Assembly (NCBI GenBank): GCA_963721385.1
Contig: CAVRJB010000019.1
Location: 981,946-1,045,945 of the forward strand
Source of the DNA: an uncultured Acidobacteriota bacterium
GTDB lineage: Bacteria > Acidobacteriota > Thermoanaerobaculia > UBA5066
Reading direction: 5' to 3'
DNA: 64,000 nt
Shown here: piece by piece, positions 3,074-58,101 of the stretch
Layout: each line of letters begins with the position of its first letter
Numbering within the stretch: position 1 is the stretch's first letter
Notes under the pieces: model-generated
Told to the model about the DNA's origin: nothing
What the model saw: only the letters and a program-made list of their open reading frames with translations
The model's database searches: none
Position numbers and translations under genes: made by a program

Positions 3074-4666
3074 TCACTTGGCGCCGGCGGAAGACGTGCT
3101 CCCGGCGAGGACGGGGGGCGCCATCCGTGCCGGAACGCTTGCGAAGACGGGGAACTGGACGGGAGAGCCGTCACCGGGATAGGCGGGCGCCGAAACCTCG
3201 CCGAAGTCGAGACCCTGCATCTCCTCCTGCGGAGAGACGCGCATGCCGATCGCGAGGTCGATGACTTTGAAGAGAGCGAAGCTCGCGCCTCCCACCCAGA
3301 GGACGTTCGCGCCGATGCCGATGACCTGGGCGAGGAGTTGCTTCGCGTCGCCGTAGAGGAGCCCCGTTACGCCGGACGCGGAGGCACCGTTCCAGCCGCC
3401 GCCGTACGTGCCGTCGGCGAGCAGTCCGAGCGCGATCAGCCCCCAGGCGCCGTTGACGCCGTGGACGGCGATGGCGCCGACCGGGTCGTCGATTTTGAGG
3501 CGGTTTTCGATGAAGAGCGCGGCGTAGACGACGAGGACGCCGGCGACCGCGCCGATGAGAATGGCCGAGGGCGCCGTCACGAAGGCGCAGGGAGCGGTGA
3601 TCGCCACGAGGCCCGCGAGCATCCCGTTGACGGCCATCGACAGGTCGGGTCGCCGGAACTTCTTCCACGTGGTGAGGTAGGCGAGAAAGGCGCCCGAGGC
3701 CGACGCCAGCATCGTGTTCGTCGCGACGACGGCGATCCGGAGGTCGGTCCCGGCGAGCGTCGAGCCGGCGTTGAACCCGAACCACCCGAACGCGAGAATG
3801 AAGCAGCCCAGCACCGCCATTGGCAGGTTGTGGCCGGGGATGGCCTGCGCCCGGCCGCGGACGTACTTACCGATCCGGGGGCCGAGGACGAGCGCGCCGG
3901 TGAGAGCCATCACGCCGCCGGTCAGGTGGACGACACCTGAGCCGGCGAAGTCGACGTAACCGTGCCCGAGGCCCGTGTACTTGCCGAGCGTCGACAGCCA
4001 GCCGCCTCCCCACGCCCAGCAGGCGAATACCGGGTAGATCAGAGCCGAGGTGACGAAGGCGTAGATCACGAAGGCGGAGAGCTTCCAGCGCTCCGCCATC
4101 GCTCCGGTGGGGATCGTCAGCGCGGTGTCCATGAAGACCATCTGGAACAGGAAAATGGCGAAAGCGGCCACGTCGTATGAGGCGCCGGTCAGAAAGAACC
4201 CCGTGCCGCCGAAGAGGCCCCAGGCATTGCCGCCGATGACCGGACCGATCAGCTTGCTCATTCCCTCCGGGACGGTCAACGCCGCTCCCATGGCGGACCC
4301 GGCCCCTCCCATCTGCAGCGCAAAGCCGGCCGCCCAGAACCCGAGGATTCCGAGGGCGTAGACCATGAAGTTCATCATCATGGTGTGGGCGGCATTCTTG
4401 GCCCGCGTGAAGCCGGTCTCCGCGAGTGCGAATCCTGCCTGCATGAACATCACGAGAAACCCGGCGACCAGCGTCCAGACGAAATTCAGCGAGACTCGCG
4501 TCTGTCCGACGGCGGCGCCGATTTCCTCGAGTGTCGGCTGGCCTGTCACTTTCGCGGGGACGTTCGAAATGCCTCCCGTCTTGTCGCCCGTGGCGTCGGC
4601 CATGACGGACCACGACGCCAGGATCAGCGCGCAGAGGAGAACGCTCAGGATCAGCCGCTTCTTCAT
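3074..4666 (-). CDS. amtB: Ammonium transporter (Amt family)
   Basis: AGGAGG then ATG at 4666; FMQAGFALAETG, IPTGAMAERW, DFAGSGVVH, GWFGFNAGS, DDPVGAIAVHG. Both pore histidines are present. Confidence 0.96.
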   Translation of the reverse strand: MKKRLILSVLLCALILASWSVMADATGDKTGGISNVPAKVTGQPTLEEIGAAVGQTRVSLNFVWTLVAGFLVMFMQAGFALAETGFTRAKNAAHTMMMNFMVYALGILGFWAAGFALQMGGAGSAMGAALTVPEGMSKLIGPVIGGNAWGLFGGTGFFLTGASYDVAAFAIFLFQMVFMDTALTIPTGAMAERWKLSAFVIYAFVTSALIYPVFACWAWGGGWLSTLGKYTGLGHGYVDFAGSGVVHLTGGVMALTGALVLGPRIGKYVRGRAQAIPGHNLPMAVLGCFILAFGWFGFNAGSTLAGTDLRIAVVATNTMLASASGAFLAYLTTWKKFRRPDLSMAVNGMLAGLVAITAPCAFVTAPSAILIGAVAGVLVVYAALFIENRLKIDDPVGAIAVHGVNGAWGLIALGLLADGTYGGGWNGASASGVTGLLYGDAKQLLAQVIGIGANVLWVGGASFALFKVIDLAIGMRVSPQEEMQGLDFGEVSAPAYPGDGSPVQFPVFASVPARMAPPVLAGSTSSAGAK

Positions 4667-4723
4667 CCTTCCACCTCCTGGTTGCCCGGGAACGCCTCTC
4701 CGGGTCTCGTTGTCCGCGCCCGA

Positions 4724-4739
4724 AGCACGAGCCGTGCCG
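4724..4739 (-). promoter_or_regulatory. Sigma54-type -24/-12 promoter of amt-glnK-porin
   Basis: Minus strand reads CGGCACGGCTCGTGCT: GG-N10-GC spacing, matching the TGGCACG-N4-TTGCW consensus, about 58 nt upstream of the amt start. Consistent with nitrogen-regulated genes. Confidence 0.6.
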
Positions 4740-5123
4740 CGCCCGCCGCGCGGGCAAAGATTTCCCGGAAAGCACTTCAGGGACGCGGCTTGTCGCATTC
4801 GAGCCGGCCCGGGACGCCTGCTTTGATAGCGACAAACTTGTATTGTTCTAGTTTTGGAGTGACGGTTATGTAAGAGACGACGCGCCGAGGCGCCTCCCCG
4901 GCCGCGCCCTCGGCCGGGTTCGGAGGATGGGGACCTTCCGTCCTTTCCCCGCCCTTAAACGCTGCGTTCAGGGTTTATGGCGCAGTTTCGGAGTCGTTTG
5001 CCGAGAAATGGCCGGCCGCGCTCCTCTGGCGAAGGTGACAGTCTCGATTGTGGCTACAGAAATGTCGAAACTGAGATCTGAGCATACAGGACTGTTGGAG
5101 CGAAATTCCCCGCCACCTGACCA

Positions 5124-5672
5124 TCACCACATCCCGACTGGGCGCGACGCGTCATAGCGCTCGGCGAAGGAAAGGCCGGCCCAGAACGTCTCCGGGGCCG
5201 AGGAAGCGATCTGGATCTCCCAGTCGCCCTTCCGGTTCCGAACCTCGGAGCCGAAGAGCTTGCGGCGCTTCGTCTCCGTGAAGACCTCCCAGAAAACGGT
5301 CCCGAAGTCGAGGATGGGGGGGCGGAAGAGCCAGGCGGGGACGCGGACGCCCACCTCGATCCGGACGTCCGCGACGCGCGTCTCGACGAAGCCGCAGGCG
5401 GAGAGCCGCTCCCGGACGAGCGCGGCGAGCGGGAGCGGGATCTCGTGCCGCCCGCGCCTGACGCCGCGGCCGAGGATCAGGTCGTCGATTGCTGCCGGAT
5501 CGGCGTCCATTTCCACTCAGCGGCCGGGGCGGACCGTGTCCGCCAGCGTGGTCCGGAGGCGCGGCAGGACGGCGCCGATCTTCAGGATCTCGGAACCGAT
5601 CACGCCGCGGGCGAGCGACGAGAGGCCGGCATCCGCCTTCTCCAGAGGGCCGAAGAGGAGGGCGACCTCCAT
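5124..5672 (-). CDS. Hypothetical protein, apparently split by an in-frame TGA at 5517-5519
   Basis: ATG 5672 has TAGACT 8 nt upstream. A 51-codon segment ends in TGA, immediately followed in frame by GTG GAA ATG of the 130-aa ORF (5124-5516). No family recognised. Confidence 0.45.
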
Positions 5673-5785
5673 GGCCGTGGAGTCTATAGCCCCCGGGGCG
5701 ACCTGAGAGAGAGTCGCTTCGGGACCTCGAACTTCAGGAAACAAAGTACTTGACAAGACGTGTACCTGGCGCGAGGCTTCGGGAG

Positions 5786-8015: not shown

Positions 8016-8741
8016 GTGACAAAGACGCTCGGCCGCAGCGCGTCGCCCCGGACGGAAGTCGTCTGGATCGGGGCCACCGCTGTGGTCCTCGGCCTGCCGC
8101 TCCTCTCCGGATCGGTGCTCGCCGGACACGGCATGCGGACGTACCTGTTGTATGCGCCGCAGGTCGCCGCGAACCTCCGAGACGGGATCCTGTTCCCCGC
8201 ATGGGCGCCGGACCTGAACGGTGGCCCTGCGCGGCTGGCTGGGCGCCGAAGGGTGGGAGGGCACCCTCGCGGCGCCGATCGTCTACATGGCGGCGCCGTA
8301 CCGCGTCATCGACGTCCACGAGCGGACCGCGCTCTCCGAGCACTGGGCCTTCGTCTTTCCGCCGCTCGTCCTCTGGGCGCTGGCGTCCGGGAGGCTCTCG
8401 CGGGGCCGCCGCTCCGGGTCCGGGTGACCGAGTGGAGGAGGCTGCGGCGGAGCGTCGCCGTGTCCCTCGAGCACCCGACGACGGTCGTACTCCATGCCCT
8501 TTTCTTCCCGGGGATGGGGATCGAAATCGACGGCCGCAGGGTCGTCGCCGCGGTGGAGCGTCGGACGGGTCTTCTCTCGGCCGTCGTGCCGGCGGGAGAG
8601 CACGTGGTGACCTGGATCTGGCGCCCGTTTTCTCCCCTCGGCGCGGCCCGGATCGCCAGCCTCGTCTGCCTCGTCGCCGTTCTCAGCGCGGCGGGGTTCC
8701 CGCGGACGGCGCCGCGTCCGGCGGCAGCTCCCAGATCGTGA
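8016..8741 (+). pseudogene. Internally deleted remnant of a PTPS-related/YfhO-like GT-C membrane protein
   Basis: Three recognisable pieces in alternating frames: N-terminal FPAWAPDLNGG; middle YMAAPYRVIDVHERTALSEHWAFVFPPL; C-terminal LFFPG...IDG...GLLSAVVPAGEHVV. Total length is far shorter than intact family members. Confidence 0.6.
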
Positions 8742-47090: not shown

Positions 47091-48155
47091 GTGCCCACGG
47101 CCACGCTCAGTGAACAGACTGCGCTCGACGCGCTCCGGACCGTCAAGTACCCCGGATTCTCCCGGGACATCGTCTCGTTCGGCTTCGTGAAGGACCTCGC
47201 CGTCGGGGGCGGGAATGTCTCGTTCCGTCTCGCGATGACGGCAGACCAGCCGGCCATCGGCGAGCAGCTGAAAGCCGAGTGCGACGCCGTGCTCCGCCGC
47301 CTTCCGGGCGTCACGAGCGTCACGATCTCGGTCCAGGCGGCACCCCCGCGCCCGCCCGTCGTGGCGGCCGGAGCGCCCCTGGGCCAGGCCGAACTCCTCA
47401 AGGAGACGCGGTTTACGATCGCCGTCGCGTCGGGAAAGGGAGGCGTCGGGAAGTCGACCGTGGCGGCGAACCTCGCCCTCGCGCTGACGAGGCTCGGCTA
47501 TCAGGTCGGATTGATGGACTCGGACATCTACGGGCCGTCCCAGCAGATGATGATGGGAATCTCCTCGCGCCCCTTCGTCAACGACGAGGAGAAGATTCTC
47601 CCGATCGAGAAGCACGGCGTCCGCGTCATGTCGATCGGCTTCCTGATGGACGTCGACACGCCCGTCATCTGGCGGGGGCCGATGATCTTCAAGGCCGTCG
47701 AGCAGTTTCTCGGCGACGTGGCGTGGGGGAAGCAGGACTTTCTCGTCATCGACCTGCCGCCCGGCACCGGCGACGCCCAGCTGACGCTCACGCAGAAGGT
47801 CCACCTCTCGGGCGCCGTCATCGTGACGACGCCGCAGGACGTCGCCCTGATCGACGCCCGCAAGGGACTCGCCATGTTCCAGAAGGTGAACGTCGACGTC
47901 CTCGGCATCATCGAGAACATGAGCTACTACGAGTGCCCGAAGTGCGGGAATCGCGAGGAGATCTTCAAGCATGGCGGCGGCAAGAAGACCGCCGATCTGC
48001 TCGGCGTCCCGTTCCTCGGAGAGATTCCCCTCGACCCGCGCGTCGCGGTTCAGGGCGACGCCGGGACGCCGATCGTCGTCGCCGAACCCGACTCGGTCGT
48101 CACGAAGGCGTTTCTCGAGCTGGCCCGGCAGGTCGCGAAGGCCGTCGGCGCCTAA
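47091..48155 (+). CDS. mrp: Mrp/NBP35 (ApbC) Fe-S cluster carrier ATPase
   Basis: N-terminal DUF59-like domain; ASGKGGVGKST, DSDIYGPS, WRGPM, DLPPGTGD, VTTPQ, ENMSYYECPKC. Confidence 0.95.
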   Translation: MPTATLSEQTALDALRTVKYPGFSRDIVSFGFVKDLAVGGGNVSFRLAMTADQPAIGEQLKAECDAVLRRLPGVTSVTISVQAAPPRPPVVAAGAPLGQAELLKETRFTIAVASGKGGVGKSTVAANLALALTRLGYQVGLMDSDIYGPSQQMMMGISSRPFVNDEEKILPIEKHGVRVMSIGFLMDVDTPVIWRGPMIFKAVEQFLGDVAWGKQDFLVIDLPPGTGDAQLTLTQKVHLSGAVIVTTPQDVALIDARKGLAMFQKVNVDVLGIIENMSYYECPKCGNREEIFKHGGGKKTADLLGVPFLGEIPLDPRVAVQGDAGTPIVVAEPDSVVTKAFLELARQVAKAVGA

Positions 48156-49924
48156 GGGGCCGGGGGCGCCTGGGGCGCCGTGGCCGCGGCCCTGAGGAGT
48201 CTCGGCGCGAAGACGAGCGCGAGGCCGTAGAGGGCGAAGGCGGGGAAGAGGGTCGCCGGCCGGCCGTTTGGCAGGTCCTCGAGGACGAGCTTCAAGCCCC
48301 CGAGCGCGAGGAGGGGCCAGACGAGCCACGAGAGCTCGAGGAGCCGGGACCTTCTTCTGCCGGCGGCGAGGAGGATCGCCGCCCCCGCGAGGACGCTGCT
48401 TCGGATCATCGCGACGAGACCCGGATCCGCCCCGACGCCGGCGCCGATGAACCTGGCGAGCGCGTGCTCCACGATCGTCCCGGCGCCGAGCGCCGCGAGG
48501 ACGGCCGACGTGAAGACTGGCAGGCGGGTCCAGAAAGTCGAGCGGTGGGCTCCGGGCGCCGTCAACAGGGCATAAACGCCCGCCGCGGCCGCGAAGACCA
48601 GGATGGCCGTCGCGGGAATCGGAGCGTCCGAGGCCGAGGAGGGCGCCGCGAAGGCGACGTAGGATGCGGCGAGCAGCCTCCCCGTCGCGGCGGCGAGGAG
48701 GAGGTAGACGGCGGCGTGAGCCGCCGGGGTCCGACCGGCGCCCCGGGCCGCGAAGGCCGAGGCGACCAGACTGAAGAGGACGAGGGGCGCGAACCGGAGG
48801 CCCGCCGGGAGGGCGAGGCCCACGAAGGCGAGCGCGAGGAGGAACGCGAGGGTCGCATGGAGACGCGCCACCGGGGCGGCTTCCTTCCGGGCATTCGCGA
48901 GGGCGTAGAGCGCCGCGGCGCCGGCGGCCGCGCCAGCGCCGACGGCGGTCACCGGGAGTCCGGCCCGTGATCCGAGCCACGCGGCCGTTCCGAGGCCCGC
49001 CGCGAGCGCGGCCGGGGTCTGGATCCAATCGAGCGCGGAGGGCGCGTGCCTCCGGAGGGCCGTCCGCCAGACGGCGGCGGCGAGATAGAGCGCGGCGAGG
49101 AGGATCGCGAGGGCGGCGAGGACGCCGGGCGAGATTCCCGGATACTCGTCGGCAGCCGCGCCGGGCCGCGTCGCAACGAAACCCGCCGAAGCGACGGCGA
49201 AGTCGGCCGCGACGGCCGCCGGCCAGGGGAGGCCGGTCCAGCCCCTCTCGTTCGCCGCCCCGAGCGACAGCGCGCCGACCGCGAGGAGGAGCGCGACGAA
49301 CGTCGCCACCGCATGCGTCGTCACGAGCAGAAGGAGGGCCGCGGGGAGGACGCCGAGCACCACGAACCAGCCGGCGGCCGGGAGGTTCCGGATCGCCGAG
49401 AGGGCGAGGCCGAGGGCGGCGAAGACGCCGAGGAGCGCGGCGGCCGTGCCTGCCGAGAGGACGCCGAGGCGCGTCGCCGCCTCCCAGACGAGGGGGCAGA
49501 CGACGAGCGTCGCCGTGAGCGCGTCGGCGGCCGCCCGGAGGCGGTCGCCCTTCCGCGCTCCCCTCTCGGCGAGGAAGAGCCACGCGAGGGCGTACGCGAG
49601 GCCCAGCGTCACGCCGGCGCCCGGCGGGAGCGCACCGGCCTCGGTCACGGCGCGAATGAGGAAGGCGCCTCCGAGCGCGAGAACGCCGCGTCCGGCGAGG
49701 GCGATCGTCCGCGAAAACGACTCGAAGGGCGGCGTCGCGGCATCCACCGGGGAGACCACGGCGGCGGCGGCCGCAGCGGCGGGCGCCGGCTCGGCGACGG
49801 CTGCCGAAGGAGCCATCGGGGCTTTCCCGGGCATCTCGAGTGCGGCCACGCGGGCCTCGAGCGATCGGAGCGTCTCGGCGAGTTCGCTCACCTTTGCGGT
49901 CAGTTTCGCGACGGCGTCGTCCAT
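48152..49924 (-). CDS. Polytopic membrane protein with N-terminal coiled coil (DUF2339-like)
   Basis: VSELAETLRSLEARVAALE, Pro/Ala linker, then a long series of TM helices (GRGVLALGGAFLIRA...). Confidence 0.7.
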   Translation of the reverse strand: MDDAVAKLTAKVSELAETLRSLEARVAALEMPGKAPMAPSAAVAEPAPAAAAAAAVVSPVDAATPPFESFSRTIALAGRGVLALGGAFLIRAVTEAGALPPGAGVTLGLAYALAWLFLAERGARKGDRLRAAADALTATLVVCPLVWEAATRLGVLSAGTAAALLGVFAALGLALSAIRNLPAAGWFVVLGVLPAALLLLVTTHAVATFVALLLAVGALSLGAANERGWTGLPWPAAVAADFAVASAGFVATRPGAAADEYPGISPGVLAALAILLAALYLAAAVWRTALRRHAPSALDWIQTPAALAAGLGTAAWLGSRAGLPVTAVGAGAAAGAAALYALANARKEAAPVARLHATLAFLLALAFVGLALPAGLRFAPLVLFSLVASAFAARGAGRTPAAHAAVYLLLAAATGRLLAASYVAFAAPSSASDAPIPATAILVFAAAAGVYALLTAPGAHRSTFWTRLPVFTSAVLAALGAGTIVEHALARFIGAGVGADPGLVAMIRSSVLAGAAILLAAGRRRSRLLELSWLVWPLLALGGLKLVLEDLPNGRPATLFPAFALYGLALVFAPRLLRAAATAPQAPPAP

Positions 49925-49958
49925 GGTCCGGTCTTTCCTGCGCGGCGGGCCGCCGGGG

Positions 49959-51140
49959 TCACGCGGTCTTCGTGCCCTCCTCGTCCCACGGCGGGAGCAC
50001 CTTCAGGAGAGCCCAGAGGATGACGAACGGGAGGATCAGCAGGAGGATCGCCGGAAGGAGACCCTCGCGCGTGGCGAAGGCCATCTTGTACGTCGTGTAG
50101 CCGAGAAAGCTCTTCGAGAAGAGCTGCCCGCCGATGACCACGTTCCACCGCATGGCGAAGATGCCGATGAGCGTCAGGACCCCTGCCAGAACGTAGATTC
50201 CCTTCCGGGCCCCCTCCGTCAGCTTCACGATCTGCGTGAAAGCGAGGAGTCCGATCGGGACGATCGTGCCGAAGACGATCTGGATGAGGATCTGCGACGT
50301 GTAGAGCCGCGTCCGGACCATGAAGTCGAGGCTCTGGAACGACTCGTCGGCTTCGTAGATCCGGTGGATCAGGTCGAGCAGCTCGATCGAGAAGTCGATC
50401 AGGAAGGCGTACAGGAGGTACCGGGCGATCGTGTCGATGCACGGCATGTCGATCTCGATTCCCTTGAGGAAGCAGACCGCCATGTACATCAGGAGGACGA
50501 GGGCGATGCCCGAGACGATCGCCGAGAAGAGAAAGACGATCGGCATCACGGGAGTCGACCACCACGGATTCGCCTTGACCGACCCGAAGATGAAGCCCAC
50601 GTATCCGTGCAGGAAGAACGCCGATGGGATGCCGATGATCGTGATGAAGCGGCCGACCTTGTCGTCCACCTTCAGCGAGGCCTCGCTGATGTCGTCGACG
50701 CCGAGCGTGAGCGCCTTGTAGAGCTTCTTCTTCCACCCCGCCTCGCTCCGCGACATCAGGACGATCTCCTTCCGGTAGTCGAGCCAGATCTCGACGACGA
50801 GGACCGCCATCAGGTACCAGAGGTAGACGAAGCCGAACATCGCCATCGCCGACGTGGTGTGCGGCGTCAGGTACATCTCGTACGAGCGTTCGGGGTGGCC
50901 GAGGTGGAGCTGCAGGGGAAGCGGCGCGACGAGGAGAAAGGCCAGCGCCGTCAGGAGCGCCAGCCGGTAGGTCGGCTTCACGGCCTGGACGTTGAAGACG
51001 CGCTCGAGCGAGGCGAGGATGAAAGCCCCGGCGACGAGTCCGGTGGTGAAGGGGTAGAGGACGATCAGGATGCTCCACTGAAGCTCGATCTCGTTGGGGT
51101 ACATGTACCCCTGGACCGCGGAAATGAGGGCTTCTTCCAT
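49959..51140 (-). CDS. nrfD: NrfD/PsrC-family membrane subunit
   Basis: WSILIVLYPFTTGLVAG, LHLGHPERSYEM, TSAMAMFG, LHGYVGFIFG, RWNVVIGGQ. Confidence 0.9.
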   Translation of the reverse strand: MEEALISAVQGYMYPNEIELQWSILIVLYPFTTGLVAGAFILASLERVFNVQAVKPTYRLALLTALAFLLVAPLPLQLHLGHPERSYEMYLTPHTTSAMAMFGFVYLWYLMAVLVVEIWLDYRKEIVLMSRSEAGWKKKLYKALTLGVDDISEASLKVDDKVGRFITIIGIPSAFFLHGYVGFIFGSVKANPWWSTPVMPIVFLFSAIVSGIALVLLMYMAVCFLKGIEIDMPCIDTIARYLLYAFLIDFSIELLDLIHRIYEADESFQSLDFMVRTRLYTSQILIQIVFGTIVPIGLLAFTQIVKLTEGARKGIYVLAGVLTLIGIFAMRWNVVIGGQLFSKSFLGYTTYKMAFATREGLLPAILLLILPFVILWALLKVLPPWDEEGTKTA

Positions 51141-51144
51141 CGTC

Positions 51145-51906
51145 CTATCTCACCGTCCCGTCGAGGTTGTTGTAATAGACCTTCGCGCCGGTCGCCATCT
51201 GCGGCTTGAGGACCTGGACCATGTGCGTCCTGAGGAACTCGTGCACGGGGTCCTTCGGGTTCTTCAGGTCGATGAGCTGGCGAGCCCCGGTGGGGCAGGC
51301 CTCGCAGCAGGCGGTGGTCAGTCCCTTCGTGATCCGGTGGTAGCAGAGGTTGCACTTGTCGACCGTGTTCGTGGCGGGGTGGATGTACCGGCAGCCGTAC
51401 GGGCAGGCCTGAATGCAATAGCGGCAGCCGAGGCAGTAGGTCTTGTCCACGAGGACGGCGCCGTCAGGGGTCTCGAAGGTGGCTCCCACCGGACACACCT
51501 GCGTGCAGGGGGAGTGCGCGCACTGGTTGCAGAGCTTCGGCACGAAGAAGCTCTTGGCCCCGTCGCCCGCCGGGTACTTCTCGGCAAAGCCGTCGTAGCC
51601 GCCGTTCGGGGAGTCGACGTCGGGATGCTCGGACCAGCCCCCCTCGATGTGATACCGCTCGACCCAGGTCCGGAAGAAAAACGGCTCGAGGGGGACGCCG
51701 TTTTCGGCCTTGTCGGCCCGGACGCAGTTGCCGCACCCGATGCACTTTCCGATGTCGATGATCATCCCCCAGTAGTGATCCGCCATCTTGTAGGCGGGCT
51801 CCATCTCCTTGCCGGACTCGGCGGCCGAAAGGTAAGCGGCCGCGGGAGCCGTGACGATCAGGAGCTTGCCGGCCGTGAGGACGAAATCCCGGCGGTTCGA
51901 CGTCAT
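51145..51906 (-). CDS. nrfC: NrfC/DmsB-family 4x[Fe-S] electron-transfer subunit with Tat signal
   Basis: Tat SNRRDFV; Cys groups CIGCGNCVRAD, CNQCAHSPCTQVC, CLGCRYCIQAC, CNLC...ACCEAC. Confidence 0.9.
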   Translation of the reverse strand: MTSNRRDFVLTAGKLLIVTAPAAAYLSAAESGKEMEPAYKMADHYWGMIIDIGKCIGCGNCVRADKAENGVPLEPFFFRTWVERYHIEGGWSEHPDVDSPNGGYDGFAEKYPAGDGAKSFFVPKLCNQCAHSPCTQVCPVGATFETPDGAVLVDKTYCLGCRYCIQACPYGCRYIHPATNTVDKCNLCYHRITKGLTTACCEACPTGARQLIDLKNPKDPVHEFLRTHMVQVLKPQMATGAKVYYNNLDGTVR

Positions 51907-52373
51907 GATTTCGGCTCCTTGTTCGGCGCGTGCGAAGCGTGGCATCCGTGGCAGTCGCCGCCGTCGAAGTGCGCCTTCAGCTCGATCTGCGGGAACTTCC
52001 TGGGCTTGGCCACGTTGGCGAGGTGGCACCTCACGCAGAGCGTCTTCGGCTCCGGCTTCGCCGGCTTCAGCGCGGACGGGTCCTCCGCGTGCCGGGCAAG
52101 AGGCCCGTGGCAGGCCTCGCAGCCGACGCCGGCGTGCTTGCCCGCCGCCAGTTCCTCCTTTTTGTCCGTGTGGCAGTCGCCGCAAGGGGCCCGACCGGCG
52201 AAGGAGACCGGCCGGGACCGGTTGTCCGCGAGCGCCCCGGCCCGGTAGTGCCCGTAGAGGCCGAAACCCTTGGGGACGAAGATCGCGCGGGCGAGCACGA
52301 ACAGGACGAGTCCCGCGGCGAAGAGGCCCGCCATCCGGACAAGGTGCATCTTGTCCTTGAAGAACTTCTGCAT
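51903..52373 (-). CDS. Membrane-anchored tetraheme cytochrome c
   Basis: N-terminal TM; four CxxCH motifs (CGDCH, CEACH, CVRCH, CHGCH). Confidence 0.92.
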   Translation of the reverse strand: MQKFFKDKMHLVRMAGLFAAGLVLFVLARAIFVPKGFGLYGHYRAGALADNRSRPVSFAGRAPCGDCHTDKKEELAAGKHAGVGCEACHGPLARHAEDPSALKPAKPEPKTLCVRCHLANVAKPRKFPQIELKAHFDGGDCHGCHASHAPNKEPKS

Positions 52374-52464
52374 GATGGCCGACTATTGATCCGGCGACGG
52401 CTGGCTGGCCATGATCAAACCGGATGGACGGAGTGATTCACTTGCATCACGTGTCCGGTCGCGC

Positions 52465-52501
52465 CCGGCCTCCGCGCCCTTGATCGGGGCGCGAAGGCCG
52501 G
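52465..52501. terminator. GC-rich stem-loop just downstream of the cytochrome b-multiheme gene (terminator or mRNA stabiliser)
   Basis: ccggcct-c-cgcgccc / gggcgcg-a-aggccgg inverted repeat; no clear U-tract. Confidence 0.4.
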
Positions 52502-52510
52502 AGGCGACGG

Positions 52511-55500
52511 TCAGCGCCGCGAGCCCGGTTCGCGGTCAACCTGACGGATCTTCGCGTAGAGGAGGATCCCGAAGATCGAGATGAAGGCCGTCGTGAGCAG
52601 AAGGCCGTTTCGCCGGTAGCGGTACTCCCCCCACGTTTTCGCGGTCCCGTCCTTCAGCTGGTCGACGGATTTCGACGCCGCCTCCGAGTTCCGCAGGAAG
52701 TCGCTTCGGTCGAACGTGTGGGTGCCGAGGCGGGTCTTCCGGAGGGCGTCGTTTACCGCGCTGGACTGGAACCGGAGTTCGTCCACGTCGAAGCCCCGCT
52801 CCGAAAGGTGGTCGACCTCGGTCTCGAGCGTCGAGGCCCGGCCGGCGAGGCCGGTGATCGTCGTGTAGAAGAAGCCCGCCGTCTCGATGCATTTCGGCGT
52901 CCCGAACTTCTCGTGGCAATCCGTGCAGAGCGCCTTCGGCCCGGGCTTGAGCATCGCGTCCGTGGGAACCTCGATCAGGTGGTTGTTGTGACAGGTGGCG
53001 CATTCGGGCCACTGGTTCCGCTCGAAGGCCTTCTTGTGCGGGCTGCCGTCGAACAGCGTCGCATTGGACGCGTGGCAGTGCCGGCAAACCTGCGAAACGA
53101 ATGCCGTCTGCGGCTGCAGGGCGGCGTGGTTCCCGTGACAGCCGTTGCAGGCCGGGGCTCCGGCGTCGTGCTTCTTCAGAAGGGCAATGCCGTGCACGCT
53201 CTTCCGGTACTGCGCCAGCTGGTTCGTCGGGAGCGGCCTTCCGTCGGGAAGGCTGTAGCCCTTCATGTACGCGGCATCGGCGTGACACCGGCCGCAGGTC
53301 GTCGGGATGTTCTCGGGGAAGACGAGCGACGCCGGGCTGTCGGGGCCGCGGATGCCGTGGACGCCGTGGCAGCTGACGCACTGGGCCGCCTTCGAGTCCT
53401 TTTTCGTGAGGAGGAGCTCGCCGTGACGGCTGCTCCGGTACTTGGCGAGCTGGTCCACGGGGAGCTTCGGGTTGTAGCTCCGCATGAACTCGCTCGAGGA
53501 GTGGCACCGGGCGCAGAACCCGGGGATCCAGGAAAGGTCCTTCTTTCGCGCCTCGCCGGCCGGCCAGCGCTTGTAGATCTCGGGGGACATCTCCATGTCG
53601 GTCGGCTTGCCGCCGTGGCAGCCGGAGCACATCAGGCCCTTGCGGAAGTGGACGTCGCTCACGACTTCCTTCAGGTCCAGGTGTCCGTACGGCGCGCTGT
53701 GGTCCTCGCGGATCCTGAAGATGATCTCGTCCGGCAGGTCCGGATTGCTGTGGCACAGGACGCAGTTGTCCGAGAGGACGAGCTCGGTCTTTCGGTCGTC
53801 GAGCTCCAGCGAGAGGAGCGTGGCGAGCTGGACGGGGGACGCAAGGAGTCCGGAAGCCGCCGCCTTGAAGAAGAGCTCCTGGGCGTGACTCGGGAGCTCC
53901 CGGAATCGGGCCTTCGATTTCTCGTCGAGGACCGGCTTTCCTTTTTCCTCGGCGGCGAAGAGCTTCCGGAAATCGGCGGGCCACGAGCCCTCGGCGACGT
54001 GGGCGCCCGCCGGGGCGGCAGATGCGGTCGTCGGCGGGGCGGGGGCGCCCTTCTCTTCGGCGCGGGCCGGGATCCCAGTCAACGAGGCCAGAACGAGGAT
54101 CGCCGCGGCTCCGGCCGCGCCGCGTCGGGTGTACCTGAAGAGGCCGTAGGCCGCGAGGAGCGCGGCGGCGATCCCGCCGGCTGCGAGCCAGCTGACGTGG
54201 GCGAAGCCGTTGAGAAACGCCTGAAGGAGGACCGCCGCCGTGAAGACGAACGCCACGTGCTTGTAGCGGAGGCGGCGGAACGCCGTCACGAGGAAGCCCG
54301 CCGCGAAGGTCCAGATCGCGGCCGTCCGCGCGATGACGGCGGCGAGGGCCGGGTCGGCGGCGGGGTCCTGGCCCTTCGGGACGGTGACGCCGATGTCCCA
54401 GGCTTTGAGCGTCAGGAAGCCGATGAAGAGGAGGCCTGCCACGCCGAGGTCCGTGAAGAGCGGGCTCGGCTTGTCCTTCGCCGCGTTCCGGTCGAGGAGC
54501 GGGACGAAGAACGCGATCCCCATCAGGATCGTCGAGAGGAGCAGGCAGGCCTGCGGGCCTTCCATCCCGAGGACGTGCGCCGGGAACTCCTTGAGCATCT
54601 GGTAGATCCAGAGGAAATACCACTCCGGCTTGATTCCCGGGTAGGCGGGCTTCAGCGGGTTCGCCTTGTCGCCGAGCGCCCACTCCATCCCCGGGATCCC
54701 CGGCCCGAAAGGAAGAACGACGGCCAGGATCGCGAGAGCGTTCAGACAGACGACCCACAGCAGGACGTCTCGCAGGGCGAAGTTCGGGAAGAAGGGCATG
54801 CCGGGGGACCGCGGCGCCGGATGGTGTTCGGACTCGAGCGGCTCGGCCATCCCCTGGCGCTGCACGAAGAGGAGGTGGACGCCGATGATCCCGGCGATCA
54901 CGAGCGGAAGGATGCAGACGTGGAGGGCGAAGAAGCGGTAGAGCGTCTGAACCGAGACCTCTTCGCCTCCCCGGAGAACGCGGAGGAGCCACGGGCCGAC
55001 GAGCGGGACGGACTTCACCGAATCGGTGCCGACGGCCGTCGCGAAGTAGCTCAGCTCGTTCCACGGCAGGAGGTAACCCGAGAAGCCGAAGCCGAGGACG
55101 AGGCCGAACATCGCGAAGCCCGAATACCAGGTCATTTCTCGCGGCTTCCGGTAAGCCTTCACGAAGAGGACGCTGAAGAGGTGGACCAGGACGGCGAGGC
55201 TCATCAGGTGGGCCGACCAGCAGTGGATCGATCGGATCAGCCACCCGAACGGCACGTGGCCGACGAGGTATTTCATGCTCTCGTACGACGTCTTCTCTCC
55301 GACCTGGTAGTACATGAGGAGCAGGATCCCGGTCACGATCTGGACGACGAAGAAGAAGAGAGAGACTCCGCCGAAGTAGTACCAGACCGTCGAGTGCGCG
55401 CCGACCGGGACTTCCTTGTGGCTCAGGAACTCGACGAGCCCGGAGATCTGGTATCTCTCGTCCAGCGCGTGCCAGAGCCGGCCGAGCGCGGTCGTCTGCG

Positions 55501-55528
55501 GAGGCCCGGAAGCCGGGTTCGTGCTCAC
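52511..55528 (-). CDS. Cytochrome b (Rieske/cyt b complex type) fused to a nine-heme cytochrome c domain, 1005 aa
   Basis: GTGA overlap with the Rieske stop. Heme-b His pairs IHCWSAH...VH and ALH...GVH; GFSGYLLPWN; PEWY. Nine CxxCH: CVLCH, CSGCH, CARCH, CVSCH, CGRCH, CNGCH, CRHCH, CATCH, CTDCH. C-terminal TM helix. Confidence 0.95.
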   Translation of the reverse strand: MSTNPASGPPQTTALGRLWHALDERYQISGLVEFLSHKEVPVGAHSTVWYYFGGVSLFFFVVQIVTGILLLMYYQVGEKTSYESMKYLVGHVPFGWLIRSIHCWSAHLMSLAVLVHLFSVLFVKAYRKPREMTWYSGFAMFGLVLGFGFSGYLLPWNELSYFATAVGTDSVKSVPLVGPWLLRVLRGGEEVSVQTLYRFFALHVCILPLVIAGIIGVHLLFVQRQGMAEPLESEHHPAPRSPGMPFFPNFALRDVLLWVVCLNALAILAVVLPFGPGIPGMEWALGDKANPLKPAYPGIKPEWYFLWIYQMLKEFPAHVLGMEGPQACLLLSTILMGIAFFVPLLDRNAAKDKPSPLFTDLGVAGLLFIGFLTLKAWDIGVTVPKGQDPAADPALAAVIARTAAIWTFAAGFLVTAFRRLRYKHVAFVFTAAVLLQAFLNGFAHVSWLAAGGIAAALLAAYGLFRYTRRGAAGAAAILVLASLTGIPARAEEKGAPAPPTTASAAPAGAHVAEGSWPADFRKLFAAEEKGKPVLDEKSKARFRELPSHAQELFFKAAASGLLASPVQLATLLSLELDDRKTELVLSDNCVLCHSNPDLPDEIIFRIREDHSAPYGHLDLKEVVSDVHFRKGLMCSGCHGGKPTDMEMSPEIYKRWPAGEARKKDLSWIPGFCARCHSSSEFMRSYNPKLPVDQLAKYRSSRHGELLLTKKDSKAAQCVSCHGVHGIRGPDSPASLVFPENIPTTCGRCHADAAYMKGYSLPDGRPLPTNQLAQYRKSVHGIALLKKHDAGAPACNGCHGNHAALQPQTAFVSQVCRHCHASNATLFDGSPHKKAFERNQWPECATCHNNHLIEVPTDAMLKPGPKALCTDCHEKFGTPKCIETAGFFYTTITGLAGRASTLETEVDHLSERGFDVDELRFQSSAVNDALRKTRLGTHTFDRSDFLRNSEAASKSVDQLKDGTAKTWGEYRYRRNGLLLTTAFISIFGILLYAKIRQVDREPGSRR

Positions 55529-56004
55529 GCGACACCTCCCGGTTTCGAGACCGTGATCGTCCCCTTCAGATCTCCGTCCACGGCGTAGGCCGCGAGCGGC
55601 CGGGGCGGGGGACCCGAGAGGACCCGGCCGTCGAGGGAGAACTTCCCGTTGTGGCAGGCGCACCAGATGAGGGCGTCGGCGGCGACGAACTGCACCGTGC
55701 ACCCCTCGTGCGTGCACTTGGCCGAGAACGCGCACAGCTTTTCGTCCTTCTTCTTCAGGACGATGACCCGATCCGAGCCGATCCGCGTGATCAGGGAGCC
55801 CATGTTGGAGAGCTCCTGCCTCTGGGCGTCGGTCAGGGTGATCTTGTTCGGGCCGCCGGCGTCCTTGGGTGGCGTCAGGTACCGGAGGATCGGGTAGACG
55901 ACGGCCGCCGCCCAGGCGACGAGGCTGCCGCCGAGCAGGGTGTCGAGCCAGCGCCGCCGCGAGACCGGCTTGCCGGCGCCGTCCGGTTGAAGGTCTTCGC
56001 TCAC
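55525..56004 (-). CDS. Rieske [2Fe-2S] protein
   Basis: AGGAGG RBS; Tat VSRRRWL plus TM; CTHEGC and CACHNGKF; GPPPRPL. Confidence 0.95.
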   Translation of the reverse strand: MSEDLQPDGAGKPVSRRRWLDTLLGGSLVAWAAAVVYPILRYLTPPKDAGGPNKITLTDAQRQELSNMGSLITRIGSDRVIVLKKKDEKLCAFSAKCTHEGCTVQFVAADALIWCACHNGKFSLDGRVLSGPPPRPLAAYAVDGDLKGTITVSKPGGVA

Positions 56005-56891: not shown

Positions 56892-58101
56892 ATGCGGCGA
56901 CTCGCGCTCCCTCTGACGACGCTCCTGCTCTTCGGGACCGCCGTCGGCGCTTCCGAACCCGGGGGCTCGGCCTTCACGGCCGGGAACACCGCGTTCGCCC
57001 TCGACCTCTACCGCGAGGTCGGGAAGGGCGGAAAGAACATCTTCTTCTCGCCGGTGAGCCTCTCGGAGACGCTCGCCATGGCCTGGGCCGGCGCGCAGGG
57101 AGAGACGGCCCGGCAGATGGCGAAGGTCCTCCGATTCCCGGCACGGGAGGAAGAGGTCCACGCGGGCTTCCGCGACCTCGAGCGGCGGATTTCGGCGATT
57201 CAGGCTGGCGGGAAGGCGGAGCTGGCGGTCGCGAACGCCCTCTGGACCCGGGCCGGCGAGCCGCTCCTGCCGCGGTTCGTGACGCTGCTCAGAGATTCCT
57301 ACGGTGCCGCGCCGACGCCCGTCGACTATGCGAAGGCGCCCGAACTGGCGCGAAAGACGATCAACGCGTGGGTCGCGTCGAAGACGCGGGACCGGATCCA
57401 GGACCTCCTCCCTCCGGATTCCCTGGACCGCTCCACCCGGCTCGTCCTCACCAACGCGATCTACCTTCAAGGGAAAGTGGAAGAGCCCGTTCGAGAAGTC
57501 GATGACCGTGGACGCCCCGTTCTTCGTCGCGCCGGGGAAGAAGGTGGCGGCTCCGTTCCTGCGCGGCTCGCCGAAGTCCGGCTACCTCGAGGTCGAGGGC
57601 GCGCAGCTCCTCTTGCTGCCGTATGAAGGAGACGACCTGTCCCTCGCCGTCCTCCTCCCCCGGGAAGCCGACGGGCTCGCCGCGCTGGAGGAGTCCCTCA
57701 CGGCCGAGCGTCTGACGGCGTGGCTGTCGGCGGCGGGCCGCGCCCGCCAGGCCGTCGAAGTCTTCCTGCCGCGGTTCCGGATGGCGACCGGCTTCACGCT
57801 CAAGGCGGCGCTCACGTCGCTCGGGATGACCGACGCCTTCGACCCGTCCCGGGCGGACTTCGCCGGGATGAGCAGCGCCCCGCCCGGCCTCTTCATCGGG
57901 GAGGGCTTCCACAAGGCGTTCGTCGAGGTGAACGAGGAGGGGACCGAGGCGGCCGCCGCGACCGGCATCGTGATCATGCCCACGTCGATGCCCCCCCCGA
58001 AGCCGGTCTTCCGGGCGGACCACCCGTTTCTCTTCCTGATCCGGGATGAAGCGAGCGGAGCGGTCCTCTTCCTGGGGCGCGTCGCGGACCCGACGCACTG
58101 A
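56892..58101 (+). CDS. Secreted serpin, frameshift at 57464-57465
   Basis: Signal peptide; [31 protein letters not shown], then (extra C) FKGKW; [13 protein letters not shown] hinge; [11 protein letters not shown]. Confidence 0.92.

Follow-up and report, generated by a model that had tools for sequence, protein, structure and literature searches.

Do the neighbouring Rieske/cytochrome b and NrfCD-type genes of this acidobacterial locus encode one composite respiratory machine or two separate ones? The window, by which we mean the whole stretch of 64,000 nucleotides analysed here, lies within a 3.8-Mb, 87%-complete metagenome-assembled genome of an uncultured soil acidobacterium, the closest relatives of which are labelled Thermoanaerobaculia or Acidobacteriota. 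Its G+C content is about 70%, and coding frames were chosen by their third-position G+C. Six co-oriented genes on the minus strand span positions 48152-56004. Read in the direction of transcription, they encode a Rieske protein and a cytochrome b fused to a nine-haem cytochrome c (together module A); an anchored tetrahaem cytochrome c, an NrfC-like ferredoxin and an NrfD-type membrane subunit (the trio, or module B); and a DUF2339-like membrane protein. An earlier interpretation made from the letters alone, the sequence-only reading, had proposed that the first five products may be joined in a single quinol-to-quinone loop for reverse electron transport or in a bifurcating device. That proposal is mostly unsupported by what follows. 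It is on the whole probable that the locus holds two separable quinol:periplasmic-cytochrome oxidoreductase modules, working in parallel in a branched chain, and not one composite enzyme.

The trio was followed in relatives through the best 80 loci among more than 588 stretches of the genome collection that match NrfD. These loci cover Thermoanaerobaculia, Terriglobia, Vicinamibacteria and Holophagae, plus one Eisenbacteria bin; all their open reading frames (ORFs) were clustered, and genes within 10 kb were counted as adjacent. All three trio genes are present in 75 of the 80 loci, and in about 90% of the loci the trio stands alone. A Rieske/cytochrome b unit is adjacent in five, to which one locus cut by the end of its contig may be added. 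Apart from the DUF2339-like gene (see below), clustering revealed no conserved neighbour of the trio. The other half was followed in an evenly drawn sample of 301 Acidobacteriota genomes. A cytochrome b-like match occurs in 206 of these, many with an adjacent multihaem match, encoded either in the same gene or in a separate one, and in most genomes this Rieske/cytochrome b/multihaem unit stands alone. An NrfD orthologue is present in only 39 genomes (about 13%). With the window's genome excluded, about 14 of the 38 trio-bearing genomes hold an orthologous Rieske/cytochrome b-multihaem unit, as does roughly one third of the phylum, so there is no enrichment. From many trio genomes this type of cytochrome b is missing, and in several the only cytochrome b is a distant one, or there is none at all. 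Where both units are found, they are adjacent in about 4-5 of the 14 genomes (~30%), namely G154, G045 (the genome of locus L029), G144 and G166. Two others, G010 and G244, carry the cytochrome b-nonahaem fusion without the trio beside it, and in locus L004, which the NrfD tree places as sister to L003, the trio sits behind unrelated genes, with no Rieske/cytochrome b unit. These counts show that the halves are, by and large, rarely adjacent in relatives.

The stretch between the modules points in the same direction. The intergenic gap (52374-52510) measures 137 nucleotides and contains a GC-rich hairpin (52458-52508, minus strand) with a stem of 16+5 base pairs and a loop of 7 nucleotides, which starts 2 nucleotides past the stop codon of the fusion gene and has no U tract. 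Folding of the gap (142 nucleotides folded) gave -78 kcal/mol with a z-score of -5.83, and none of 200 shuffled sequences was as stable. A simple scan for promoters and terminators returned no promoter and did not call the hairpin. At the same position, loci L001, L002, L005 and L029 have hairpins of differing sequence. Since these different sequences fold at the same place, the structure is maintained and the sequence is not. The hairpin may terminate transcription or stabilise the end of the mRNA. Downstream of it, alignment with relatives delineates a candidate promoter or 5' untranslated region of the trio (52374-52457, minus strand) with a conserved TGA(N)TCA..TTGAnnATGG-like element, about 35-75 nucleotides before the tetrahaem start. 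This element is common to L001 and L002, and a related form occurs in L003, L005 and L004. Because L004 has it without a Rieske/cytochrome b unit upstream, the element belongs to the trio. Judged by this layout, the two modules are probably transcribed or stabilised separately in this genome, and their co-transcription here is doubtful.

Several points weigh against this reading. In G154 there is no gap, the tetrahaem gene abutting the fusion gene, and co-transcription is therefore likely in that genome. In the window itself, a hairpin devoid of a U tract could be a stabiliser inside a single transcript. Adjacency also recurs in at least four arrangements, far above chance: the window's family and L029/G045 have the modules in collinear order, L046 has the trio first, and the two units are head-to-head with a shared intergenic region in G144 and G166, where NrfD is 59% and cytochrome b 46-48% identical to the window's. 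Finally, electrons may run through the trio in either direction; its relative Qrc reduces quinone. Since the recurrence of adjacency exceeds chance, a loose functional or regulatory link between the modules, for example through a shared periplasmic acceptor pool, is plausible. As a separate observation, locus L081 of the L029 genome (positions 3987-5767) carries a second, distant Rieske/cytochrome b pair (29-33% identity) directly downstream of nrfD, so that the trio is flanked there by Rieske/cytochrome b genes on both sides.

What, then, does each module consist of? Domains were called with Pfam and equivalogs with NCBIfam models at their cut-offs (290 bits for ExtP, 200 for DsrO, 350 for DsrP, 400 for QrcC); sequences were matched against the PDB, and folds are AlphaFold models compared by Foldseek. 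In module A, a fused domain with nine haems stands in for monohaem cytochrome c1 or f, the third core subunit of bc1/b6f complexes. The Rieske [2Fe-2S] subunit (159 residues; 55525-56004, minus strand) matches PF00355 (E 3e-12) and a PetC transmembrane-anchor family. Its translation displays an N-terminal transmembrane anchor, a SRRRWL motif resembling a twin-arginine translocation (Tat) signal, and the cluster-ligand motifs CTHEGC and CACHNG (CxH...CxxH). It scores 70 bits against the NCBIfam b6f iron-sulfur subunit, under the cut-off. The cytochrome b-nonahaem c fusion (1005 residues; 52511-55528, minus strand) matches PF00033 (E 1.5e-47), PF00032 and PF13631. Its gene has a GTG start, which overlaps the Rieske stop in the sequence GTGA and is preceded by a GGGAGG Shine-Dalgarno sequence. 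The first ~390 residues form an unsplit equivalent of cytochrome b6 plus subunit IV, with H-x13-H in helix B, H-x14-H in helix D and a PEWY-type Qo motif (KPEWYF). The best PDB sequence matches of this part are cytochromes b6 (E 2e-47), while the ExtP model gives 192 bits, below its cut-off. Beyond this part lie, in order, several additional transmembrane helices, an Ala/Pro linker, a region with exactly nine CxxCH motifs (residues 589-872, encoded by 52913-53764) and a C-terminal transmembrane helix. Six further genomes have the identical fusion architecture (59-76% identity); in most Acidobacteriota, cytochrome b and the multihaem protein are encoded by separate genes.

Module B begins with the membrane-anchored tetrahaem cytochrome c (156 residues; 51903-52373, minus strand), which has four CxxCH motifs and a transmembrane helix at residues 15-33. 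Its Pfam matches are c554, c7 and Paired_CXXCH; none to the NapC/NirT family (PF03264) was obtained in Pfam at E <= 0.01. A paralogous tetrahaem protein in locus L107 gives a sub-threshold match to PF03264. The stop codon overlaps the next start in ATGA, which places the start of the nrfC-like gene at 51906, not 51903. This gene (51145-51906, minus strand) encodes an NrfC/PsrB/DsrO-like, Tat-exported four-cluster ferredoxin of 253 residues (Fer4_11, E 9e-23) with an NRRDFV Tat motif and four Cys groups. NCBIfam scores of 172 bits for TtrB, 155 for DsrO and 98 for QrcC all fall under the cut-offs. The best PDB match is Thermus PsrB (2vpw_B, E 1.5e-37), and ArrB is also near. After a gap of 4 nucleotides comes the NrfD-family quinone-interacting membrane subunit (393 residues; 49959-51140, minus strand; PF03916, E 2.8e-38), of the ActC-like type with about 10 helices. 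By sequence it finds no match in the PDB, either singly or as a 25-sequence profile, and its score against the DsrP model is only 38 bits. By fold (AlphaFold model, pTM 0.81), the top four Foldseek matches are all ActC of alternative complex III (ACIII), with TMq values of 0.67-0.73 (8k9e_C at 0.73; 6btm_C, 6f0k_C and 6lod_C); ActF comes next, then the eight-helix PsrC. No trio protein reaches the NCBIfam equivalog cut-off for a Nrf, Dsr, Qrc, Ttr or Hmc subunit. The five co-oriented genes of the sequence-only reading are borne out by coordinates, motifs and Pfam matches alike. Its mention of several overlapping stop and start codons was slightly generous, there being two overlaps (GTGA and ATGA) and one 4-nucleotide gap.

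Over the 80 loci, median identity to the window is 75% for NrfD, 69% for NrfC and 51% for the tetrahaem protein. NrfD is unusually conserved, at 70-92% identity over four classes. Recent horizontal spread was considered as the cause and rejected, because the NrfD tree tracks taxonomy, one branch setting Terriglobia apart; this argues for vertical inheritance with losses. The first-cluster motif of the window's NrfC, CIGCGNCVRAD, has Asp at the fourth ligand position (51712-51714). It shares this Asp with three other matches, against Cys in about 70 other orthologues (CIGCGxCVRAC); the Asp is a lineage-specific change, not a family trait. The cytochrome of the trio also varies. In G144, locus L082 (9482-10195) has two successive tetrahaem-like matches ahead of nrfC, which suggests a duplicated or octahaem cytochrome in that lineage of divergent arrangement. 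In L004, a gene for a small secreted monohaem cytochrome c (8337-8687; 116 residues) lies immediately upstream of the tetrahaem gene. Among the long NrfD homologues of this subfamily, all three of them representatives of 50%-identity clusters, P0128 bears a C-terminal region resembling an FAD-linked oxidase, and P0129 and P0213 bear a C-terminal transmembrane helix followed by an NHL-type repeat region, as judged by reading the sequences. Such fusions seem unusual for a cofactor-less quinone subunit. A Rosetta-stone link between NrfD and DUF2339 was rejected, since the domains carried by these long homologues are others.

The sixth gene was absent from the gene list of the sequence-only reading. 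It encodes a DUF2339-like polytopic membrane protein of 590 residues (48152-49924, minus strand), with a weak match to PF10101 (25 bits, below the cut-off), and starts 34 nucleotides past nrfD in the same orientation. Of the 73 loci with enough sequence, 36 have this gene immediately 3' of nrfD. It is probably, perhaps very probably, the fourth gene of the trio unit. It is not restricted to the trio: trio-free Rieske/cytochrome b-multihaem operons also have it as a neighbour, co-oriented in G083 and transcribed away from the Rieske gene in G056, G098 and G288. A profile of the protein finds it in 33 of the 301 Acidobacteriota genomes, and its surroundings were inspected in nine further genomes from among these. 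In five of the nine (three of family f40, G068 and G282) it adjoins a gene for an NrfC-like product with 32-34% identity to that of the window. In G036, G068 and G292 it stands beside a paralogous tetrahaem-FeS-NrfD trio (NrfC ~33% identical). These neighbours are Pfam-confirmed for G036 and, in G068, for the NrfD-type subunit. Stops and starts at these loci overlap or nearly abut, and the DUF2339-like gene lies on one side of the trio or the other. In G020 it directly precedes a hexahaem cytochrome of the NapC/NirT family. No respiratory neighbour was seen in three of the nine genomes. In all, the gene goes with four kinds of quinol-cytochrome module. This neighbourhood signal is the most novel result of the analysis and its most interesting lead.

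The AlphaFold model of the DUF2339-like protein (pLDDT 87.6) begins at the N-terminus with a coiled coil, which a disordered linker connects to about 18 helices. Foldseek found no fold match for it in the PDB, all TM-scores being below 0.3. Invariant residues are few (R25, G78, G86, R91, Y111, P144, E148 and D550) and, as neither His nor Cys is among them, there is no sign of a cofactor. The protein is probably an accessory membrane component of module B. A bolder proposal would make it an unrecognised fourth component, either a subunit or an assembly or scaffold factor, of periplasm-facing quinol:cytochrome modules, one that ties the nonahaem unit and the Cbc4-like trio into a single assembly in such lineages; we would give this proposal little credence.

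How might the two modules work? Menaquinone is assumed for Acidobacteriota. Beyond this, the direction of electron flow, the type of quinone, the partners and acceptors and the transcription units are as we infer them. Module A would be a bc/b6f-type menaquinol oxidase, in which quinol is oxidised at the PEWY-type Qo site. One electron would pass via the Rieske cluster into the covalent nine-haem wire that takes the place of c1/f, and the second via the two b haems. In module B, the cofactor-less NrfD would bind quinol near the periplasmic face, and electrons would run along the four [4Fe-4S] clusters to the tetrahaem protein and from there to soluble or anchored periplasmic cytochromes. Neither module would need a catalytic subunit, because a cytochrome is the output of both. 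Indeed, as the sequence-only reading had correctly stated, no such subunit lies in or near the cluster. The flanks contain no catalytic oxidoreductase subunit, the nearest of the five molybdopterin loci of the genome is at a distance of ~560 kb, and a search for a NiFe hydrogenase in the 87%-complete genome found none.

Both modules would then be parallel exits from the quinone pool, beside others encoded in the same genome. These include a complete canonical ACIII encoded next to an aa3 oxidase, with a pentahaem ActA/QrcA-like protein, a 1008-residue ActB with a TAT-variant molybdopterin signal, NrfD-type subunits and a CtaD scoring 683 bits. There is also a second Rieske/cytochrome b unit, with an overlapping ORF bearing five CxxCH motifs directly downstream. 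A further candidate exit, at C16:364452-367250 (locus L106), is an HmcB/HybA-like Tat ferredoxin (HmcB 346 bits, below the cut-off), followed by an NrfD/HybB-like gene and a gene for a 226-residue membrane protein; no cytochrome or hydrogenase gene is seen near this pair. With so many quinone-pool exits, the locus studied here is not the sole bc-type or ACIII-type system of the organism.

The genes around the cluster deal overall with lipid, sugar and Mla functions, a serpin, ccm and ApbC/Mrp. One flank holds a cyclopropane-fatty-acid synthase-like gene, an acyltransferase gene and, on the opposite strand, the gene called mrp in the sequence-only reading, which encodes an ApbC/NBP35-type Fe-S carrier ATPase. 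The other flank holds a gene for a Urate_ox_N-like membrane protein, the serpin gene and ccmF/E/C/(B)/A. The serpin-family gene (57304-58101, plus strand) lies between the respiratory cluster and the ccm genes; its ORF matches only Pfam positions 162-370, so the true start may be further upstream or the gene may be truncated. The suggestion that mrp and ccm serve the cluster as dedicated cofactor suppliers was rejected: neither ccmF nor the ApbC/Mrp gene occurs within 10 kb of the trio in any of the 80 loci. Matches resembling ccmF do occur a few kb or less from a cytochrome b unit in two loci examined later, L083 and L097.

Outside the window, further along the same contig (C19:1050289-1057949, equivalent to window positions 68344-76004), is a giant c7-repeat cytochrome gene. 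It is split into three frames with 30, about 10 and 9 CxxCH motifs (at least 45), by apparent frameshifts or by assembly errors in the repeats. A gene for a membrane-linked FAD/NAD/2Fe-2S reductase-like protein precedes it, and one for a 436-residue barrel-like protein that ends in GITFRF and has no Pfam family comes after it. By their sequences, the giant cytochrome and the barrel could be a porin-cytochrome-type pair. This bears on the idea that both modules are inner-membrane entries to extracellular electron transfer via a giant multihaem cytochrome and an outer-membrane barrel. The idea is a form of the multihaem conduit suggested in the sequence-only reading and is compatible with two parallel modules. 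The pair lies 12-20 kb beyond the Rieske gene in this genome, 15 multihaem ORFs are found in the genome, the fused cytochrome b resembles ExtP to the extent given above, and Geobacter Cbc complexes have been assigned to extracellular electron transfer. However, the pair was rejected as a syntenic partner: in the two closest relatives 135-235 kb separate it from the cluster, and the barrel, itself without a family match, found no counterpart in the three other genomes of the same family that were searched (G154, G095 and G246). In addition, the organism has the aerobic ACIII-aa3 chain, and deletion of cbcS in Geobacter produces no Fe(III) or Mn(IV) phenotype. The part of the idea that stands is the proximity of a giant cytochrome and a barrel; their synteny does not, and we regard this route as unlikely.

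A single functional unit, be it a supercomplex or two mutually dependent modules, a quinol oxidase and a quinone reductase joined by periplasmic haems, would account for a neighbourhood that recurs across deep branches of the NrfD tree, for the closed gap of G154 and for the DUF2339-like gene being found beside either module. It sits poorly with the adjacency of the modules in only 5-6 of 80 trio loci and in a minority of the genomes that have both, with trio genomes whose cytochrome b is distant or missing and whose content of the orthologous type follows that of the phylum, and with the hairpin and the separate upstream element between the modules. We consider it quite unlikely. Smaller still is the chance that the trio runs in reverse, as a Qrc-like periplasmic cytochrome c:menaquinone reductase feeding the quinone pool. 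It is true that the trio and Qrc have the NrfC/NrfD core in common (QrcC 98 bits) and that, according to the literature, complexes of the NrfD family work in either direction. But there is no QrcB-like subunit, no periplasmic NiFe hydrogenase was found in this incomplete genome, and the fold of NrfD is nearest to the quinol-oxidising ActC; in the Geobacter analogue, moreover, the potentials of CbcS and its transfer of electrons to PpcA point to quinol oxidation. That the trio is instead the membrane anchor of a distant catalytic reductase of the NrfA, MccA or molybdoenzyme type is very improbable: NrfCD normally serves NrfA via NrfB and the genome does hold molybdopterin loci, but the nearest is remote, no catalytic neighbour is conserved in the 80 loci over four classes, and the trio supplies its own cytochrome output.

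A highly branched chain, in which the two modules drain the quinone pool in parallel, is thus favoured over a new composite bc-NrfCD machine, and that idea is corrected accordingly. The matter is of more than local interest, as soil, peat and sediment metagenomes contain the trio in abundance (matches at E <= 1e-10 in more than 8000 clusters of proteins at 90% identity), and units of this type, Geobacter Cbc4 included, are without an assigned physiological role despite their abundance. Later tests are narrowed by the findings that the trio is autonomous, that it has an ActC-like fold and that it travels with a DUF2339-like protein without a solved relative in the PDB.

The comparison with known systems supports the remaining statements of the sequence-only reading, namely that the two halves are distinct quinone-reactive architectures, one with the layout that the literature gives for Cbc4 and the other of the Cbc3 type (in our comparison Cbc3/Cbc6, ExtOP), and that the locus is not a full ACIII. 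Cbc4 of Geobacter sulfurreducens (GSU0068-0070) comprises the anchored tetrahaem cytochrome CbcS, the 4x[4Fe-4S] protein CbcT and the membrane subunit CbcU, and is presumed to be a menaquinol:periplasmic cytochrome c oxidoreductase. CbcS, with potentials of -139 to -151 mV, reduces PpcA in vitro. Compared by published architecture, Cbc4 and the window's trio agree in their three parts and the order of these, in the cofactor-less membrane subunit and in having no catalytic subunit; an anchored tetrahaem cytochrome, a periplasmic four-cluster protein and an NrfD-type subunit are all found in the window. The first haem Cys of CbcS is at residue 64, as in the window protein, although this rests on primer-derived fragments and is thin evidence. 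A possible difference lies in the haem core, which published descriptions of CbcS liken to NapC/NirT, a family to which the window's tetrahaem protein has no Pfam match at E <= 0.01. Furthermore, Cbc4 has a published composition of three subunits, without the DUF2339-like gene present here (by description only), and the window's trio, unlike Cbc4, adjoins a Rieske/cytochrome b unit.

A second counterpart is the DsrOhPh-tetrahaem locus of cable bacteria, some Desulfobulbales and Gamma- and Betaproteobacteria, which stands apart from dsrMK, has been proposed to be a quinol-to-periplasm carrier and was previously called a 'candidate alternative complex III' (PMC13047784). Like the trio, it encodes a DsrO-like ferredoxin, a DsrP/NrfD-like subunit and a tetrahaem cytochrome. 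It differs from the trio in gene order and in having a small TMH1 protein. DsrPh clusters near DsrP and not ActC (PMC13047784), whereas the window's NrfD is closest in fold to ActC. ACIII itself resembles the trio in its ActC fold, in the correspondence of ActA, the Fe-S half of ActB and ActC to the tetrahaem protein, NrfC and NrfD, and in the quinol:cytochrome c direction proposed for the trio. However, the molybdopterin-like ActB1 domain, ActD, the monohaem ActE and ActF, the second NrfD-type subunit, are absent between 48152 and 56004; the window's tetrahaem protein has four haems against five in ACIII, and its NrfC, at 253 residues, is an Fe-S domain only. The complete ACIII of this organism is the one encoded elsewhere in the genome.

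Other relatives of the trio are more remote. E. coli NrfBCD is a comparable chain of cytochrome c, NrfC and NrfD that leads from menaquinol to the periplasm, and the trio has family matches to TIGR03149 and TIGR03148. Scores against these two Nrf equivalogs are nonetheless far under the cut-offs (129 vs 378 and 57 vs 348 bits, respectively), pentahaem NrfA is absent from the locus, and an anchored tetrahaem protein stands in place of the soluble pentahaem NrfB. Unlike DsrMKJOP, the locus has no DsrM- or DsrK-like gene, and the DsrO and DsrP scores (155 vs 200 and 38 vs 350 bits) are below the cut-offs. Unlike QrcABCD, it has no molybdopterin-like QrcB, and QrcC reaches 98 vs 400 bits. By analogy, the trio may best be described as being of the Cbc4 or minimal-ACIII-core type. 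As to module A, it resembles Cbc3/Cbc6 (ExtO/ExtP) in combining a Rieske protein and a b6-like cytochrome b with a multihaem cytochrome c that replaces c1/f. CbcOP and CbcVW have been described as orthologous pairs. Module A departs from these in that a single polypeptide of 1005 residues with a C-terminal anchor unites cytochrome b, subunit IV and the nonahaem domain. The Rieske/cytochrome b complexes of anammox bacteria, with their multihaem cytochromes, are of a comparable kind. Each half of the locus is thus of a known though poorly characterised kind, and the variations are the single-polypeptide cytochrome b-nonahaem fusion, the recurrent but facultative pairing of the two modules and their DUF2339-like companion.

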